Shown here in pieces: positions 51,246-59,676 of a stretch of 64,000 nucleotides of DNA. How positions within the stretch are numbered: the first letter of the stretch is position 1; every line of letters starts with the position of its first letter. This stretch comes from Helicobacter cetorum (GTDB lineage Bacteria; Campylobacterota; Campylobacteria; Campylobacterales; BB28), in the NCBI GenBank assembly GCA_022729755.1, contig DZAZ01000002.1, forward strand, positions 1,926 through 65,925, read 5' to 3'. The translations under genes were made by a program, and so were the position numbers. Below the pieces are notes generated by a model that searched no databases, was not told the DNA's origin, and saw only the letters and a list, made by a program, of their open reading frames with translations.

Positions 51246-51566
51246 TTATCCTAAAAAGTAATTTAATTTATCAGTATAAGTCTGTTTTGAAGAAGCACCA
51301 ACCATTTGGTCAACAACTTCACCATTTTTGAAAATAAGTAGTGTAGGAATACTTCTAATTCCAAATTTAATTGCTAATTCTTGCTCTTCATCAGTATTAA
51401 CTTTACCAATTTTAGCTTTACCTTCAAATTCCTCTGTCAATTCATCAATAATTGGAGCAATCATTCTACACGGTCCACACCAAGGAGCCCAAAAATCAAC
51501 TAAAGTTACACCATCTTTTACAACTTCATTAAAGTTTGAAGCATTAAGTTCAATATATTTTCCCAT
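51246..51566 (-). CDS. trxA: Thioredoxin
   Basis: WCGPC active site. Length 106 aa. Confidence 0.9.
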   Translation of the reverse strand: MGKYIELNASNFNEVVKDGVTLVDFWAPWCGPCRMIAPIIDELTEEFEGKAKIGKVNTDEEQELAIKFGIRSIPTLLIFKNGEVVDQMVGASSKQTYTDKLNYFLG

Positions 51567-51630
51567 TAATTATCCTTTTTTCATAAACTTAAGTGTTGAT
51601 TATACTTCAAAAAAACTTTTAAATCAACTT

Positions 51631-51954
51631 TTAAATAGTAATATTTTCAATTAAATCAATTTCTTGATTGCTTATAATTAAAGCATCTATACAAAATTCA
51701 ACATTCACATTATTTTTTAAATAGATATAAACCGATTTTATAATTTTTTTTATTTTTGATGGAGTTATATTATAAATCGGCTCAAAACTATCCCCACTTT
51801 TAACCTCAATAAAGTGCAAAACTCCATCTTTTTTAGCAATAATATCAATTTCACCAAATTTTGTATAAAAATTTCGCTCAATTATTTCAAATTTTTTGCT
51901 TGTTAAAAATTTTATGGCTTTATCTTCAGCAAGTGAGCCTTTTAATCTCGACAT
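51631..51954 (-). CDS. yraN: YraN-family (UPF0102) endonuclease-like protein
   Basis: [19 protein letters not shown] is the UPF0102 D...E-x-K core. Length 107 aa. Confidence 0.7.
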
Positions 51955-51956
51955 TT

Positions 51957-52580
51957 TTATATTTTTTGTAATAATTCAGAATGAGGAATTAATTTTATAT
52001 CTTCTATTAAACTATTTAACTCTTGTTTCAAGTCATTCATGTATTTTTGTAAAGCTTCCAAAACTTTTATATCAGATTTTTTTATACAAACAGAAATAAT
52101 AATATTTTTAGTTTTTTTATAAAAAAAGCATTTATTAACTATTTTAAATTTATTGGGCATATCATTATATATACAAAGAGTGCCTAATATTTTATCTTTT
52201 AGCTCTTGTTTAATAATTTTTTTAATAAATTCTCTAATATTTGTATCGTCAATATTGGATTTTAAATTTTTTTGAATAGATTTATTAATAGCTTCATTAA
52301 TTTTTTCATTCTCATTATTAGAAAATTGTTTGAAATATTCTTTAATAAGTTTTTCACTTCCATATTTTAAATAATTATCTTCTTGAGCTTTTAAATTAGA
52401 AAATTCTATAAAATATACTTTTCTATTTTTAAAATAAAAATAATCACAAGATGGAATTCCATTCAAATTCATATTCAATTTTATACCATTTTTACCATCA
52501 ATTTTTAAAGCTTTTTTATTATATTTGGGTGAGTTTTCACATTCAGGGTCTATTTTTTCTAAATGTTCATATAGAAGCAT
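51957..52580 (-). CDS. Hypothetical 207-aa protein, translationally coupled partner of the upstream ATPase
   Basis: Its start overlaps the ATPase stop by 1 nt. I recognise no motif. CDYFYF...[10 protein letters not shown] only loosely resembles a nuclease core. Confidence 0.35.
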
Positions 52581-53965
52581 TAAACATCTTTCATATATAG
52601 TTCAAAAAATGGCTCACTTAACTCCTCTAAAACTATATCTATTTTTTTACTTAATTCTTTTTTATGAAATTCATCACTATAAGGCATCATATTCAAAGAG
52701 ATAAATTTTGCTGCCTCTTTATCTTTTTTACTAAGTATTTCTAAAAATTTTATTATCTCTATACTATGAGTTGCAATTACTATATTTGCACCACTTTTAG
52801 CAATATCATATAACACCTCTATCATTTTTATTTGCCACTCTGGATGTAAATGAACTTCAGGTTCATCTAAAATCAAAAATGAACCTTTTTTTATAATATT
52901 ATTTTCCAGTAATAAACCTATAAGCCCTATATTTGATATTCCCATTGCAGTTAATGAAATTGGAATTACTTTTCCACCATCATTTACATAATTTATTTCT
53001 CCACTCTTTGAAAATTCTACTTTTCCACTTATAATTTTTTCTATTTTTTTATAAACTTCAATGAAATCAGGTTTATCAATGTACCTTTGTTTCATTAATT
53101 CAAAAAGCTTTTCTACATAAAAAGGATAACCTTTTAAATATTTATCTTCACTTTTTTTAGCAAAGATAGATAAAAAAGTTGTTTTATTACACTCTTCTAA
53201 TGCCTCTTTTATTTTAATATAAATAGGAGAATCTAAATAAATTATACTTGAGAGTTTTTGTATTTCTTCTATTCCATTCGATTTTAAATTAAATTGTATT
53301 TCTTCTCCAGTAATTACTATATCACCTATTGTATTCAATTTAAAACTATTATTTTCATTGTTTTTTGAATTGAAATTATGTAAATCTTTTAATTTAGTAA
53401 TTTGAAAATTTTTTAAAAGTTTATCTCTTAAGTTCTTACCTATTTCAAAGCTAATTAAATCTCTTGGGCTATGAAGATTTTTTTGTAATGAAGATAAATT
53501 TTCTTTAATCTCATTTAAATTATTTTCTAGTTTTTTGTATTTTATAATTTTATTACTTTGTTTTATTTTATAATTGTCTAATATTTGTTCAGCTTCTAAA
53601 ATTATATTTTGTTCAGCTTCTTGCCAAGAAAATTGTTTTATTAAACTTCTTTCTTTAGAAATTGTAAGTAATTTATCAATTTTTTCTAAATGTTGGAGAA
53701 AAGTATCTATAAAAATTTTATCATCTTTTGATTGTGTAGTTAAAATAGTTTGAAGAGAATTAAAATTGTCTTGTAATTTAATTAACTGACTATTTATTAC
53801 TAGTGATAAATAGTCAATATTTAATACACTTAAAAAACTATACAAACTTTTTGTAGCAAAACTTTTACCACTATCATTTTTACCAGCTATGATAGTCAAT
53901 GGTTTTATGTCAAGATTTGCTCTATCTATTTTTCCAAAATTTTTTATTTCAAAATTAAATTCCAT
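52580..53965 (-). CDS. SMC/ABC-like ATPase (AAA_15/AAA_21 type) with a long helical insertion
   Basis: Walker A AGKNDSGKSF, then ~300 aa of helical/coiled-coil-like insertion. These are followed by the signature-like SLTAMGISNIG, Walker B FLILDEPEVHLHP and H-loop IATHS. Confidence 0.65.
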   Translation of the reverse strand: MEFNFEIKNFGKIDRANLDIKPLTIIAGKNDSGKSFATKSLYSFLSVLNIDYLSLVINSQLIKLQDNFNSLQTILTTQSKDDKIFIDTFLQHLEKIDKLLTISKERSLIKQFSWQEAEQNIILEAEQILDNYKIKQSNKIIKYKKLENNLNEIKENLSSLQKNLHSPRDLISFEIGKNLRDKLLKNFQITKLKDLHNFNSKNNENNSFKLNTIGDIVITGEEIQFNLKSNGIEEIQKLSSIIYLDSPIYIKIKEALEECNKTTFLSIFAKKSEDKYLKGYPFYVEKLFELMKQRYIDKPDFIEVYKKIEKIISGKVEFSKSGEINYVNDGGKVIPISLTAMGISNIGLIGLLLENNIIKKGSFLILDEPEVHLHPEWQIKMIEVLYDIAKSGANIVIATHSIEIIKFLEILSKKDKEAAKFISLNMMPYSDEFHKKELSKKIDIVLEELSEPFFELYMKDV

Positions 53966-54096
53966 TCTTATTCTTTTGTTTATTTTTATTATTAGGTTTT
54001 ATTATATAGTTTCTAGTGTTAGAGTATGGTAAAAGTTACGATATACTCATTTATCTTAACTTTTACTAAAAAAGCAAAATCTATTCCGTCTTTTTT

Positions 54097-55512
54097 TCAA
54101 CAAATCACAACCGATTTTATTTCGCTAAACTCTTCAAGTGCAAATCTGGCTCCCTCTCTTCCAATACCGCTAAGTTTAACCCCACCATAAGGCTGAATAT
54201 CAAATCGTAAAGTTGGAATATCATTAACCACAACTCCGCCACACTCAAACTCTTCAATTGCCCGTTTTGTAAGAGTTAAATCATTTGTAAAAATCGAAAA
54301 TTGAAGTCCATAAGGCGAATTATTTATTTTCTCTAAAGCTTCATCAAAATTACTAACTTTAATCAAGCTTACAATCGGAGCAAAAACCTCTTCACAAACA
54401 ATATTCATACTATCAAGCACATCTACCATAATAGTTGGATAAAAAATAAGCCCTTCGCTCTTGTTTCCACTCAAAACTTTTGCACCCTCATTTATCGCAC
54501 TTTGTACCCAATTTTTGGCTCTTTCAATCGCTTCAATATTTATTAGTGAGCTGATAAATGTTTCATTTTCATACGGACTTCCAACTTTTAGTTTTTCAGT
54601 TTCAGTTTTTAACTTTTGGGCAAACTCTTCATAAATATCTTGATGGACATAAATTCTCTGAAGTGAAATACAAACTTGTCCAGAATTGATAAAAGCCCCA
54701 TAAGCACAGCGATTTGCTGAAATATTCAAATCCGCACTCTTATCGATAAAAGTTCCAGCATTTCCGCCAAGTTCAAGTGCTACTTTTTTAATTCCAGCAT
54801 TTCTCATAATAATTTTGCCAACTCCAACACTTCCAGTAAAACTAATTACTCGCGGAATTTCGCTAGTTACAAGAGTGTTTCCAATTTCAGCATCGCCATA
54901 AATTAAACTTAGTGCATCTTTGATTGCAAATTCACTCTCAATAAAAAGTTTTGCAAATTTATAAGCAGTTAGCGGAGCTTCTGGAGTTGGTTTTAAAATC
55001 ACTGTATTTCCCATAGCTAGGGCTGGAGCTAATTTATGAGCCACTAAATTTAGTGGAAAATTAAATGGAGTAATCGCAACCACAACTCCCACAGGTTCTC
55101 GTTTAAAGTAACTTATTGTTTTTTTACCGCTACTCATCGCATCGGAATTGAAAAGCTCACCACTAAAATTCATAACTTCACTTGCGCTAATTTTAATCGT
55201 TTCAATACATCTATCAACTTCAATTCTACTAAAAGTTATCGGCTTTCCAACTTCATCGGTTATTGTTTTTGCGATATCTTCTTTGTTTTCTTGCAATTTT
55301 TTTGCAACATCAAGTAGCCAATTTATTCTTTGACTTAGAGGAGAATTTTTTGCATTTTTTTTAGTTTTTTGTGCAATTTCAAGTGCTTTTGTTGCATCTT
55401 CAACTTCGCATTTAAGGGATTTTGAAACAACTTCATTTAAATATGGACTAACTCTATCTACATAATCATCTCTAATAATTTCATTACTTCCTAAAAACAT
55501 ATTTGCCAACAT
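54097..55512 (-). CDS. NAD(P)-dependent aldehyde dehydrogenase
   Basis: ELGGNA (catalytic Glu), FINSGQVCISLQR (catalytic Cys) and FTGSVGVGK cofactor motif. Confidence 0.85.
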   Translation of the reverse strand: MLANMFLGSNEIIRDDYVDRVSPYLNEVVSKSLKCEVEDATKALEIAQKTKKNAKNSPLSQRINWLLDVAKKLQENKEDIAKTITDEVGKPITFSRIEVDRCIETIKISASEVMNFSGELFNSDAMSSGKKTISYFKREPVGVVVAITPFNFPLNLVAHKLAPALAMGNTVILKPTPEAPLTAYKFAKLFIESEFAIKDALSLIYGDAEIGNTLVTSEIPRVISFTGSVGVGKIIMRNAGIKKVALELGGNAGTFIDKSADLNISANRCAYGAFINSGQVCISLQRIYVHQDIYEEFAQKLKTETEKLKVGSPYENETFISSLINIEAIERAKNWVQSAINEGAKVLSGNKSEGLIFYPTIMVDVLDSMNIVCEEVFAPIVSLIKVSNFDEALEKINNSPYGLQFSIFTNDLTLTKRAIEEFECGGVVVNDIPTLRFDIQPYGGVKLSGIGREGARFALEEFSEIKSVVIC

Positions 55513-56696: not shown

Positions 56697-57074
56697 TTAA
56701 CATTTTTTTAAATCACCATCAAAACTAATTTTTCCATAATCCTCCAATTTACTTTTTGCACATATAAGAGCATCTACAAAATCTATATTTTTATTTTCTA
56801 AAATATTTAATGTCTCATATAAAACTATTTTATTGGAATTTACCACACCATCAAGCGATAATATAGTCTTTAAATCTAAAATAACTTCATCTTTAGGCAA
56901 TTTATAAAACTTTGTAAGCACAAAAAAAGCTTCCATCAAAACAGTATCTAAGATTTCTACCTCTATTTTTAAAGCTTCTATATCTTTAAAATATTTTTCA
57001 CTCTCTTTTAAAAATTTCTCATTATCTCCAACTAAAAATCTAATAATTACATTTGTATCAAGTAGATAAATCAT
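56697..57074 (-). CDS. vapC: PIN-domain toxin VapC
   Basis: MIYLLDTNVIIRFL is the first acidic PIN motif, with later conserved acidic residues (E..., FVDAL). Length 125 aa. It overlaps the upstream antitoxin gene. Confidence 0.8.
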   Translation of the reverse strand: MIYLLDTNVIIRFLVGDNEKFLKESEKYFKDIEALKIEVEILDTVLMEAFFVLTKFYKLPKDEVILDLKTILSLDGVVNSNKIVLYETLNILENKNIDFVDALICAKSKLEDYGKISFDGDLKKC

Positions 57075-57312
57075 ATTTTTCTCTCATTGCAATTAAAGTA
57101 GCCTCTTCTTTTATCTCTTTGAAATTTAAATTATTTTTTTCTACTCTATCTTTATATTTTCCAGCTAATTTATCTACTTTGTTACTTCTTTTGACAGGAT
57201 AGACAAAAGCTAATGTCTCTTTTTTTCTTTTATCTATAATTTTGACAATTTGATTTAAATTATTAAAAATAGATATCTTTTTTTGAATTTCACCAATTCC
57301 GATAGTTAGCAT
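57058..57312 (-). CDS. Cognate antitoxin (VapB-type) of the PIN toxin
   Basis: 84-aa ORF overlapping the vapC start by 17 nt, which is the typical type II TA arrangement. Confidence 0.55.
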   Translation of the reverse strand: MLTIGIGEIQKKISIFNNLNQIVKIIDKRKKETLAFVYPVKRSNKVDKLAGKYKDRVEKNNLNFKEIKEEATLIAMREKYDLST

Positions 57313-58073: not shown

Positions 58074-58877
58074 TTATGCACAATTAAAAATAATTAATTC
58101 AAGATAAACTTTTTTGTTTTTATCTTCTATATTATTAAAAATATATGAGATAGATGTTTTAGAGGTTTCTTTTACAAATAAAGAAAAATTAGGATGAGTA
58201 GATATAGCATTTTTTGCATTTTCTAGTAATTTAGAAAAATCTTTATTTTCTTTATTGAAAATTATTAAAGCAGTATGTTCATCTCTCCAATTTACATATC
58301 GTTCTAAAAGTTGGTCAATAGCTTTTAATAATTCTTTTTCTCCATACCAAATTTTACATTCTCCAATAAAAACATTTATACCATTGTTATCTTGTATTAG
58401 AATATCTGTTTTTCCTATTTTATTAAAAGTTTCACCAGTTGCAGAATGATTTTTTGATATTGAATTTAAATGTGGTAAGAAAAAATCTCTAAACCCTTCT
58501 TCATCAAATTTTGAATGAAGAGATTTTAGTTTTTCAAGTTCAAGTCCAAATTTATTTATTTTTTCTATAATCTGAGAGTATGCTTGATTACTAATAGTAG
58601 ATAATTCTTCTACTTCAAAATATGGGTCTATTGGCTCAGATTTAAAAAAATTATCAAGCTGTACAATTATTTCTTTTTCAACTTCATTTGGTTCATAAAA
58701 TTTAGAAGGATAAACAGTAATATCTGTTCGTTTATTGTTTGTAATATTTACCGTTCTAGTTGTTTGAAGATTATTTAATAATTTTTGTACTATTTCAAGT
58801 TGTTTATTATTTTTTAACTCAACTTTTAAATAAGGATTACCATGAGCTTCTCTGTGTATGATTGTGTAATTTAACAT
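58074..58877 (-). CDS. Stand-alone PD-(D/E)xK nuclease-fold protein with an unknown N-terminal domain
   Basis: The C-terminal half carries GKTDILIQDNNGINVFIGECKIW, a D-x(n)-E-x-K core. The N-terminal ~140 aa have no motif I recognise. Confidence 0.45.
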   Translation of the reverse strand: MLNYTIIHREAHGNPYLKVELKNNKQLEIVQKLLNNLQTTRTVNITNNKRTDITVYPSKFYEPNEVEKEIIVQLDNFFKSEPIDPYFEVEELSTISNQAYSQIIEKINKFGLELEKLKSLHSKFDEEGFRDFFLPHLNSISKNHSATGETFNKIGKTDILIQDNNGINVFIGECKIWYGEKELLKAIDQLLERYVNWRDEHTALIIFNKENKDFSKLLENAKNAISTHPNFSLFVKETSKTSISYIFNNIEDKNKKVYLELIIFNCA

Positions 58878-59090: not shown

Positions 59091-59366
59091 CTAATACTTT
59101 TTAAAAAGTTGTGAATGTGTACCAATCCTAAGTAAGATAATCTCATTATCTTCATTTATAAGATAAATAACTAACATATCTCCACCAATATGAAATTCTC
59201 TACAATCCAAATATTCACCATTTAATAAATGGTCTCTTGCTTCAAGTGGTAATTTACCATCAATTCTTAAACAATTTACATAATAGACAAACTTTTCAAA
59301 TTGAGTATCACTTAATTTGGCTTTATTAAACTCTTTGATAAAAACTTTATGCCTATTAATTTTCAT
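59091..59366 (-). CDS. yafQ: YafQ/RelE-family mRNA interferase toxin
   Basis: 91 aa. ...DCREFHIGGDMLVIYLINEDNEIILLRIGTHSQLF matches the YafQ C-terminal signature (GTHSELF). Confidence 0.75.
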   Translation of the reverse strand: MKINRHKVFIKEFNKAKLSDTQFEKFVYYVNCLRIDGKLPLEARDHLLNGEYLDCREFHIGGDMLVIYLINEDNEIILLRIGTHSQLFKKY

Positions 59367-59676
59367 TTTTATGTTTTAACTCATCTAATGAAAACTCCTC
59401 AACATTTTTACCTTCTCTAGCCTCCTCAATAATAGTTTTAGTTTTATCATTTGGAATTTTTACATCAAATGGTATCCCTTTGTGTAAATTAACTTGATGT
59501 AAGAACATATTAAAAGCATCTCCCATTGAAATACCAAGTTCTTTAAATATCTTTTTTGCTCTCTCTTTTGCCTCTTTATCCAATTTAATACTTGTAGTTT
59601 CTTTCATAATTGAAATAGACATAAAAAATCTCCCATAATACTTTTGTGTTATTTTATCGTATTTTTTCATTAGCAC
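59356..59676 (-). CDS. dinJ: DinJ/RelB-family antitoxin
   Basis: TSIKLDKEAKERAKKIFKELGISMGDAFNMFLHQV is a ribbon-helix-helix DinJ pattern. It overlaps the toxin start. The true start is probably an internal Met (MSISIM or MKETT). Confidence 0.75.
   Translation of the reverse strand: MLMKKYDKITQKYYGRFFMSISIMKETTSIKLDKEAKERAKKIFKELGISMGDAFNMFLHQVNLHKGIPFDVKIPNDKTKTIIEEAREGKNVEEFSLDELKHKNEN

Follow-up and report, generated by a model that had tools for sequence, protein, structure and literature searches.

A putative ATPase-nuclease cassette of the HEC-02 kind in Helicobacter cetorum, with a partner protein clade that has lost the strand lysine

This report concerns a pair of adjacent genes in Helicobacter cetorum, located in a stretch of 64,000 nucleotides (assembly GCA_022729755.1, contig DZAZ01000002.1, positions 1,926 to 65,925 of the forward strand) that will be called the window. 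The first gene codes for an ATPase of the ATP-binding cassette (ABC) type and the second for a small protein, termed the partner. Taken together, they appear to be a divergent version of HEC-02, the 'Hma-embedded candidate' 02, in which an ABC ATPase is combined with a PD-(D/E)xK protein of the NERD-like type (bioRxiv 10.1101/2024.01.29.577857). When placed in E. coli, HEC-02 lowered the plaquing of several coliphages, and both of its genes were needed for this effect (bioRxiv 10.1101/2024.01.29.577857).

A previous interpretation of this DNA, made from the letters alone and referred to here as the sequence-only reading, had described a two-gene cassette in which the stop codon of the ATPase overlaps the start of the partner. 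Both points are exact: the open reading frames (ORFs) are those listed in Table 1, and they share a single base, the last base of TAA being the first of ATG (TAATG). The same reading had called the pair AT-rich and placed it between an aldehyde dehydrogenase gene and yraN, in agreement with a GC content of 0.18-0.25 over the two genes, versus 0.30-0.36 in the flanking aldehyde dehydrogenase and trxB/dapB/purF genes, and with the Pfam assignment of the upstream neighbor to Aldedh (PF00171) and of the downstream one to UPF0102/YraN (PF02021). Only 2 nt separate the partner stop codon from the start of yraN, the trxA-trxB genes lie further downstream on the yraN side, and no terminator-like site was found in 51500-54300. 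The promoter scan was uninformative, returning 28 sites with 22.5 expected, a count no higher than that of shuffled sequence. Among named homologues, those closest to the flanking aldehyde dehydrogenase belong to Sulfurimonas, Arcobacteraceae, and other Campylobacterota. An empty-site test did not reveal an aldehyde dehydrogenase-yraN junction lacking the pair, as the two homologues nearest to this aldehyde dehydrogenase (82% and 71% identity) are located in different neighborhoods. Judging by their relatives, both ORFs are genuine genes, because the ATPase has 343 homologues and the partner has 50 further family members.

Table 1. Features of the gene pair and of its surroundings in the window
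Feature	Position	Strand	Description
ATPase ORF	52580..53965	minus	461 aa, ABC-type (AAA_15/AAA_21), HEC-02A-like putative sensor/regulator subunit
Walker A (P-loop)	53861..53884	minus	G28-K-N-D-S-G-K34-S35; G28, N30, G33, K34 invariant in 28 homologues
Helical-bundle insertion, about residues 49-186	53408..53821	minus	after the Walker A helix; optional module
Walker B / D-loop	52856..52879	minus	F363-LILDEPE-370, then VHLHP; D367, E368, P369, E370, H372, H374, P375 invariant in 28 homologues
H-loop	52763..52774	minus	A398-T-H400-S401; A398, H400, S401 invariant in 28 homologues
Partner ORF	51957..52580	minus	207 aa, divergent HEC-02B-like (NERD-like, PD-(D/E)xK-type) putative effector
Active-site-like beta-hairpin motif	52392..52451	minus	S44-C-D46-Y ... 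F57-I-E59-F-S61-N62-L63; family SCDY ... FIEF[S/T]DL
Helix motif E126-L-K-D-K130	52191..52205	minus	K130 in 51/51, E126 in 46/51
Upstream intergenic region, 131 bp	53966..54096	minus	weak promoter-like site 54015..53988, from consensus scan only
PIN/VapC-like pair	56697-57312	minus	VapC-like protein of 125 aa + overlapping 84-aa upstream ORF
PDC-S54-like gene	58074-58877	minus	267 aa, PADLOC candidate PDC-S54 at 1.4e-59
RelB/YafQ pair	59091-59676	minus	RelB-like antitoxin + YafQ/ParE-like toxin

The homologue search with the ATPase placed its nearest non-self relative at about 44% identity (E 1e-108). In Pfam the protein matches AAA_15 (2.9e-20) and AAA_21 (2.6e-16), and among the PHROGs it matches PHROG 14430 (3.7e-75), whose function is unassigned. 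Its best PADLOC model is HEC-02A (PDLC04214, 9.9e-33), followed by PD-T4-4_A, generic AriA, PDC-M47A, and NsnB; the general idea that the locus has the ATPase-plus-effector layout of defense systems was therefore right, since the best matches are the ATPases of such systems and a small partner is coupled to this one. All three motifs that had been proposed, Walker A, Walker B, and the H-loop, can be read directly from the sequence and are invariant in 28 homologues, the Walker B / D-loop residues 364-375 being LILDEPEVHLHP. As a separate observation, one PADLOC model labeled HEC-02B (PDLC04146, 344 positions) matches the ATPase (2.6e-19) and not the small partner, and for this reason at least one of the models bearing that name appears to describe an ATPase-type protein.

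The AlphaFold model of the ATPase, built from the homologue alignment, is confident (pLDDT, the local distance difference test as predicted, 86.4; predicted template-modeling score, pTM, 0.86) and presents an ABC-type head that is broken after the Walker A helix by a five-helix bundle of about 135 aa (residues 52-186), whose helices of some 20-26 residues each run from 52-74, 80-105, 116-137, 140-165, and 167-186. Past the bundle, the model consists of ordinary ABC-fold strands and helices. The description of the protein as an SMC/ABC-like ATPase with a coiled-coil insertion is thus supported by Pfam and Foldseek as far as the ABC/SMC superfamily is concerned, while the insertion is a helical bundle; an SMC/Rad50-like long antiparallel coiled coil was rejected on the basis of the model, and the helical stretch of about 300 aa once assumed between Walker A and Walker B is likewise replaced by the bundle and the ABC fold that follows it. 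When the model was compared with the PDB by Foldseek, PtuA of Septu and retron systems came first (E 2.6e-7, template-modeling score about 0.37), then the heads of SMC proteins and cohesin, and in a PDB sequence search the matches to UvrA, PtuA, OLD, and AriA were confined to the Walker B / H-loop region. A likeness to Septu, Gabija, Lamassu, and OLD had been pointed out, and it holds at the level of the ATPase superfamily and goes no further. The bundle is optional, as relatives of 330-350 aa (48-52% identity), among them a 350-aa protein at locus L017, are devoid of residues ~47-177 and retain the same partner.

As for the partner, a word-indexed homologue search returned only the partner itself, and when 1.84 billion cluster representatives were scanned exhaustively with HMMER, a family of 51 members including the partner was recovered (E <= 1e-3). 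This family, which corresponds to 51 clusters at 50% identity, is fast-evolving: its members range from 99 to 217 aa and share 27-43% identity. The partner also matches PHROG 34018 over nearly its full length (2e-10), again a PHROG with no assigned function. In the alignment of the 51 members D28, D46, E59, and K130 are invariant and E13, Y47, D62, and E126 are nearly so, within a consensus that reads K-x-D-G ... K-S-C-D-Y ... F-I-E-F-[S/T]-D-L-x-x-Q ... E-L-x-x-K, and the invariance of three acidic residues together with K130 argues that a metal-binding catalytic site has been kept in this clade. The AlphaFold model of the partner is confident as well (pLDDT 88.8, pTM 0.84): strands 47-51 and 54-61 form a hairpin with D46 at the start of the first strand and E59 in the second, after which come a long helical region and a strand-helix-strand unit with strands at 157-164 and 194-199.

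Other identities were considered for this protein. The sequence-only reading could not match it to HNH, Toprim, DUF4276, or RloB patterns, and indeed none of them fits. Toprim, HNH, PD-T4-4_B, and AriB were each rejected after the partner and its family were tested against Pfam and PADLOC. For HNH the only Pfam hit to the partner was Tox-HNH-HHH at E 0.83, with PtuB unmatched in PADLOC by partner and family, and neither the partner nor its family had any Pfam or PADLOC match to Toprim, DUF4435, AriB, or GajA-type proteins.

The two genes do form a pair and are inherited together. A genome scan with the ATPase alignment, limited to one genome per species, gave 80 loci, and hidden Markov models (HMMs) of both proteins were run on all ORFs of these loci and of three others fetched earlier. 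With close ATPases defined by a score of at least 245 bits, 38 genome loci remained for the co-occurrence count, and a partner-family gene stands immediately downstream of the ATPase in 34 of them, usually overlapping or abutting it; the same order was found on IMG/VR viral contigs in all 12 loci with a close ATPase. The co-occurrence asked about in the sequence-only reading is thus confirmed, and in unrelated contexts. The four exceptions comprise a contig end (L007), a locus with transposase genes directly downstream (L012), and two loci from which the partner is absent (L016 and L025). Looking at individual exceptions, the transposase genes of L012 (9460-12239) lie in the region downstream of an ATPase that has no partner, and in L016 (9211-9825) a HigA/HigB-like pair occupies the place where the partner would be expected.

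The hosts of the pair include Arcobacter/Aliarcobacter, Sulfurimonas, Sulfurovum, Methylococcales, Moraxella/Psychrobacter, Pasteurellaceae, and several Betaproteobacteria, so that it is spread over Campylobacterota, Gammaproteobacteria, and Betaproteobacteria, with different surrounding genes each time. This spread in unrelated neighborhoods, along with the low GC content, indicates that the pair is mobile and was probably acquired horizontally. No match was obtained by tblastn among GenBank phages with either protein, or among PLSDB plasmids with the ATPase.

The relation to HEC-02 was established by using as reference the tested system of Dickeya dianthicola NCPPB 3534, whose A and B proteins of 342 and 169 aa were taken from a supplementary table (bioRxiv 10.1101/2024.01.29.577857). 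In BLASTP the window ATPase aligns with the tested HEC-02A from end to end (23% identity, E 1e-15), with the bundle as the only large difference, and the HMM of the clade ATPases gives HEC-02A 87 bits. On the side of the partner, the PADLOC HEC-02B model PDLC04229 is matched by 9 of the 51 family members, with a best E of 5.3e-7, and a few members match six other HEC-02B models. Further evidence comes from the more distant ATPases of the genome scan (100-155 bits), which are also followed by a downstream protein of 170-200 aa, this time with a canonical D ... F-I-E-F-K motif. Comparison by hhalign of the partner family with the partners of the neighboring clade gave a probability of 94.5% (E 8e-8) and brought both the hairpin and the helix lysine into register; in turn, the tested HEC-02B is matched at 3.4e-9 by the profile of the neighboring-clade partners and, over residues 19-149, at 1.5e-8 by the merged profile. 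The helix lysine aligned to K130 is near-invariant in the neighboring clade (41 of 42) and aligns with the EIAAK of HEC-02B, and being conserved in both clades it is therefore not a newly acquired compensation for a lost strand lysine. The NERD domain of Pfam (PF08378) is matched neither by the partner nor by its 51 relatives at E <= 0.05, and by 1 of 33 neighboring-clade partners (0.0034); among the PDB sequences, the profiles of the partner family and of the neighboring clade matched nothing at E <= 10. The effector, which had been regarded as unrecognized, is thus linked by profile to the NERD-like PD-(D/E)xK protein HEC-02B, and the cassette is therefore a relative of an experimentally validated system.

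A second system, WonAB, is needed to discuss how such a pair might work. WonAB resides in the WASA-1 prophage of V. cholerae, its first protein being described as 'OLD-ABC ATPase' and its second as having 'a variant of the PD-(D/E)xK nuclease fold'; the system aborts infection by ICP1 through a shutdown of translation, with DNA not degraded, and defense requires the ATPase motifs of WonA together with K71 of WonB (PMC12137116). WonB is unstable and is toxic only alongside active WonA, and simple sequestration of the effector was experimentally ruled out (PMC12137116). For this system, the small protein is predicted to dock on the C-terminal region of its ATPase.

In our judgment, the pair is rather likely to be a nuclease module under the control of its ATPase, similar in kind to HEC-02 and WonAB and directed against phages. 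The homology to the components of HEC-02, the strict co-occurrence and gene order, the intact ATPase motifs, and the conserved acidic residues all point in this direction, and the defense function of this clade, the formation of a complex, the nuclease activity, and the nature of the target would follow by analogy. Modeled on HEC-02 and WonAB, the ATPase would dimerize through its ABC heads and would hold, stabilize, or license the small partner. The variable parts of the ATPase, which in this case may be the helical bundle of 135 aa, would serve to sense infection, and the binding or hydrolysis of ATP would then activate the partner, a putative metal-dependent phosphodiesterase whose active site would use D46 and E59 and would probably also involve D28 and K130. 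Once activated, the partner would cut nucleic acid and the infection would be stopped, by either abortive infection or direct interference.

Several findings weigh against this interpretation. The partner has no match in Pfam, NCBIfam, or PADLOC, and its link to HEC-02B is transitive, being made at the level of families and through the neighboring clade; compared directly with HEC-02B, the partner family reaches a probability of 6% in hhalign, and its profile gives a weak E of 1.9e-4 in a single comparison, in which the same hairpin motif is aligned. The Foldseek search that had been recommended for the partner found no significant neighbor of its model in either database, the best E being 3.4 in the PDB and 1.1 in BFVD, so that the assignment of a PD-(D/E)xK fold is based on motifs and on the order of secondary structure elements and not on a structural match. 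The reference for this order is an alpha-beta-beta-beta-alpha-beta core that carries D on strand 2 and (D/E)xK on strand 3. Position 61, the site of the lysine in (D/E)xK, is serine or threonine in 51 of 51 representatives and never lysine, and in the fetched loci all 42 distinct partners likewise keep D46 and E59 with serine or threonine at position 61. A lysine two residues after the glutamate (E+2) is instead found in 39 of 42 partners of the neighboring ATPase clade, in HEC-02B (IEVK), and in WonB (IELK). Moreover, residue 62 is asparagine in the window protein and aspartate in 46 of the 51 family members, and in a qualitative survey of the related loci most neighbors of the pair are housekeeping or glycan-biosynthesis genes.

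The lysine at E+2 is also the point from which a different view of the partner starts, namely that the pair belongs to the same system family and that the partner is no longer a conventional nuclease. It might then act as an adaptor or a subunit that binds nucleic acid, or through another chemistry, and the toxic or defensive output would have another source, for instance the ATPase or a host factor. The uniform serine or threonine at this position and the lack of a nuclease neighbor in Foldseek would fit such a role, as would the behavior of WonB, in which K71A abolishes both defense and toxicity (PMC12137116). We nevertheless hold it to be unlikely, because the residues D28, D46, E59, and K130 never vary in the family and D62 seldom does, a pattern that speaks for a preserved metal-binding catalytic site. 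In addition, PD-(D/E)xK enzymes with a replaced lysine do exist, such as BamHI with glutamate and BglII with glutamine, and the cap-snatching endonucleases take their lysine from a helix. The strand lysine is absent in 93 of the 93 partner sequences examined, with D28, D46, E59, and K130 invariant, and from this it can tentatively be proposed, as a possibility short of an even chance, that the whole partner clade rebuilt its active site, either with a lysine from the following helix or with a changed chemistry or substrate, the bundle of the ATPase being perhaps a separate module for trigger recognition. As part of this proposal, the modeled fold of the partner may have diverged so far that Foldseek finds no neighbor for it. 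The clade-wide loss of the lysine and the confident partner model with no Foldseek neighbor are the only unusual features of the pair.

Two further explanations leave phage defense aside. The pair could be a toxin-antitoxin (TA) or addiction module that stabilizes mobile DNA, with the partner as toxin and the ATPase as antitoxin, and some observations are in line with it, given that the Pfam text for AAA_21 reads 'putative AbiEii toxin, Type IV TA system', that TA genes (ParE, zeta, HigBA-like, VapC, and RelB/YafQ) are frequent neighbors of the pair, and that it also occurs on prophage-like contigs. We consider it improbable, since the ATPase persists without a partner in L012, L016, and L025, the opposite of what is expected from a pure antidote, and the tblastn search with the ATPase gave no PLSDB plasmid; moreover, WonB is toxic only when WonA is active, with simple sequestration excluded in that case (PMC12137116), and HEC-02 protects against phage (bioRxiv 10.1101/2024.01.29.577857). 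The other explanation is that of a housekeeping pair for DNA repair or maintenance, co-transcribed with yraN and with the downstream trxA-trxB genes, in keeping with the 2-nt gap to yraN, with the lack of terminator-like sites in the scanned interval, and with the role of SMC/RecF/RecN-type ABC ATPases in repair. YraN (UPF0102) itself belongs to the PD-(D/E)xK superfamily, another point in favor. Yet the distribution of the pair is patchy and its context differs in every genome, YraN follows it in none of the L001-L003 context listings, the closest relatives of the neighboring aldehyde dehydrogenase lack it, its GC content is atypical, and the best family matches of the ATPase are all defense ATPases, so that we regard a housekeeping role as very improbable.

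Returning to the surroundings of the pair, three further entries of the defense or TA type are found within 7 kb of it in the window and are listed at the bottom of Table 1. The 267-aa PDC-S54-like protein covers only the C-terminal 175 of the 410 profile positions, has no Pfam match on record, and contains a D...E-C-K motif (TDILIQD...FIGECK); its gene sits in a low-GC stretch flanked by the two TA pairs. Together with the cassette, these genes form a loose defense/TA neighborhood, into which the aldehyde dehydrogenase gene and kdsB-like genes are inserted. The flanks examined, about 52-60 kb of the window, showed no Hma system.

At the related loci, defense or toxin genes are located near the pair in a minority of cases and include DarT-Macro, HsdR, ParE, zeta toxin, a CBASS cyclase, IetAS, SspH, and LeoA. 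Such neighbors, at these loci and in the window, count in favor of the defense interpretation. Arcobacter-type loci, namely L001 (937-7913, Aliarcobacter lanthieri) and L004 (Arcobacter sp. 15-2), and also L010 and L025, have the pair inside a biosynthesis cluster for a sialic acid-type glycan, with genes for NeuB, Epimerase_2, NTP_transferase, CTP_transf_3, and Polysacc_synt, and the pair seems to land repeatedly in variable glycan loci. In L001, a DarT-Macro (DarTG) pair is located a few genes upstream of the cassette. Four other loci from Sulfurovaceae / Campylobacterales metagenome-assembled genomes (L039, L059, L060, and L061) contain two ATPase copies of the distant clade 0.5-1.7 kb apart, and at two of them, L039 and L061, a small partner of the ExK type accompanies each of the copies. 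Such an arrangement suggests local duplication or stacking of related modules.

These findings have two consequences. Current annotation would probably miss the cassette, as PADLOC recognizes the ATPase and not the partner. In addition, there is a widespread clade, found in Campylobacterota, in Gamma- and Betaproteobacteria, and on prophage-like contigs, whose effector lacks a residue that is essential in WonB. If this clade is active, it would represent a natural experiment on the mechanism and on the minimal catalytic site of the HEC-02 / WonAB / PD-T4-4 nucleases; otherwise, the pair would be one more member of a common theme.

It remains to place the cassette among the known systems. With Septu (PtuAB), PARIS (AriAB), Gabija, and OLD it shares the ABC-clade ATPase fold, with PtuA as the best match among solved structures and with generic AriA models of PARIS matching at 1e-24. 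The effectors of these systems are an HNH protein (PtuB), Toprim/DUF4435 proteins (AriB, OLD, GajA), or a helicase (GajB), and the partner, unlike the ATPase, matches none of them. PD-T4-4 is reportedly an E. coli system from Vassallo et al. 2022, and here too the similarity concerns the ATPase, which matches PD-T4-4_A in PADLOC at 7.3e-26, whereas no PD-T4-4_B model is matched by the partner or by any of its 51 relatives. PD-T4-4 is organized similarly to WonAB, and its B protein was modeled with PD-(D/E)xK residues (PMC12137116).

The sequences of WonA and WonB homologues were taken from a supplementary table of the work on this system, which cites Krishnan et al. 2020 for 'OLD-ABC ATPase + novel REase' operons (PMC12137116); the published quantitative PCR primers did not locate the V. 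cholerae wonAB in viral or metagenome contigs. As in WonA, the Walker A lysine of the window ATPase is residue 34, the Walker B / D-loop reads DEPE-x-HL, and the H-loop reads THS; a difference is the signature motif, which is SSSGQQ in WonA. WonB homologues share the pattern V-D-G ... C-D-[FHY] ... F-[IV]-E-L-K-G-S-D, and the downstream partner reproduces its three parts as x-D-G, C-D-[YF], and F-I-E-h followed by S-D (where h is a hydrophobic residue). WonB is however shorter, at about 145 aa, and reads ELKGSD with the essential K71, whereas the partner clade reads EF-SD with no lysine. In terms of scores, the HMM of the clade ATPases gives two WonA proteins 47 and 30 bits, compared with the value reported above for HEC-02A, and the WonB sequences stay below 10 bits against the partner profiles. 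Since each Won protein falls well short of the score reached by its counterpart in HEC-02, the pair is filed as a divergent HEC-02 branch, and WonAB is the best-studied mechanism to borrow, that is, abortive infection with an effector that depends on an active ATPase.

The likeness to HEC-02 extends over the whole cassette. In each case gene A precedes gene B and the two overlap, by one base here and, going by the coordinates, by 4 nt in the tested system; both ATPases carry an unusual motif in the signature region ('TAMG' / 'VAEG'), and both small proteins, of about 170-200 aa, have the hairpin D ... h-I-E-h-x-D and then the helix E-x-x-x-K. The differences are of two kinds. The window ATPase, at 461 aa, exceeds the 342 aa of HEC-02A by the additional helical bundle at about residues 49-186. 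The window partner has E59-F-S61 in place of the E-V-K of HEC-02B and so departs from the signature (D/E/Q)xK, contains an extra helical segment at about residues 63-110, and falls below every HEC-02B model of PADLOC (none at E <= 1), which presumably would not call a HEC-02 system here. On the strength of homology, then, the cassette is best described as a divergent variant of a known and validated type of defense, with HEC-02 as its closest described relative and with WonAB and PD-T4-4 as more distant cousins within the same broad group.

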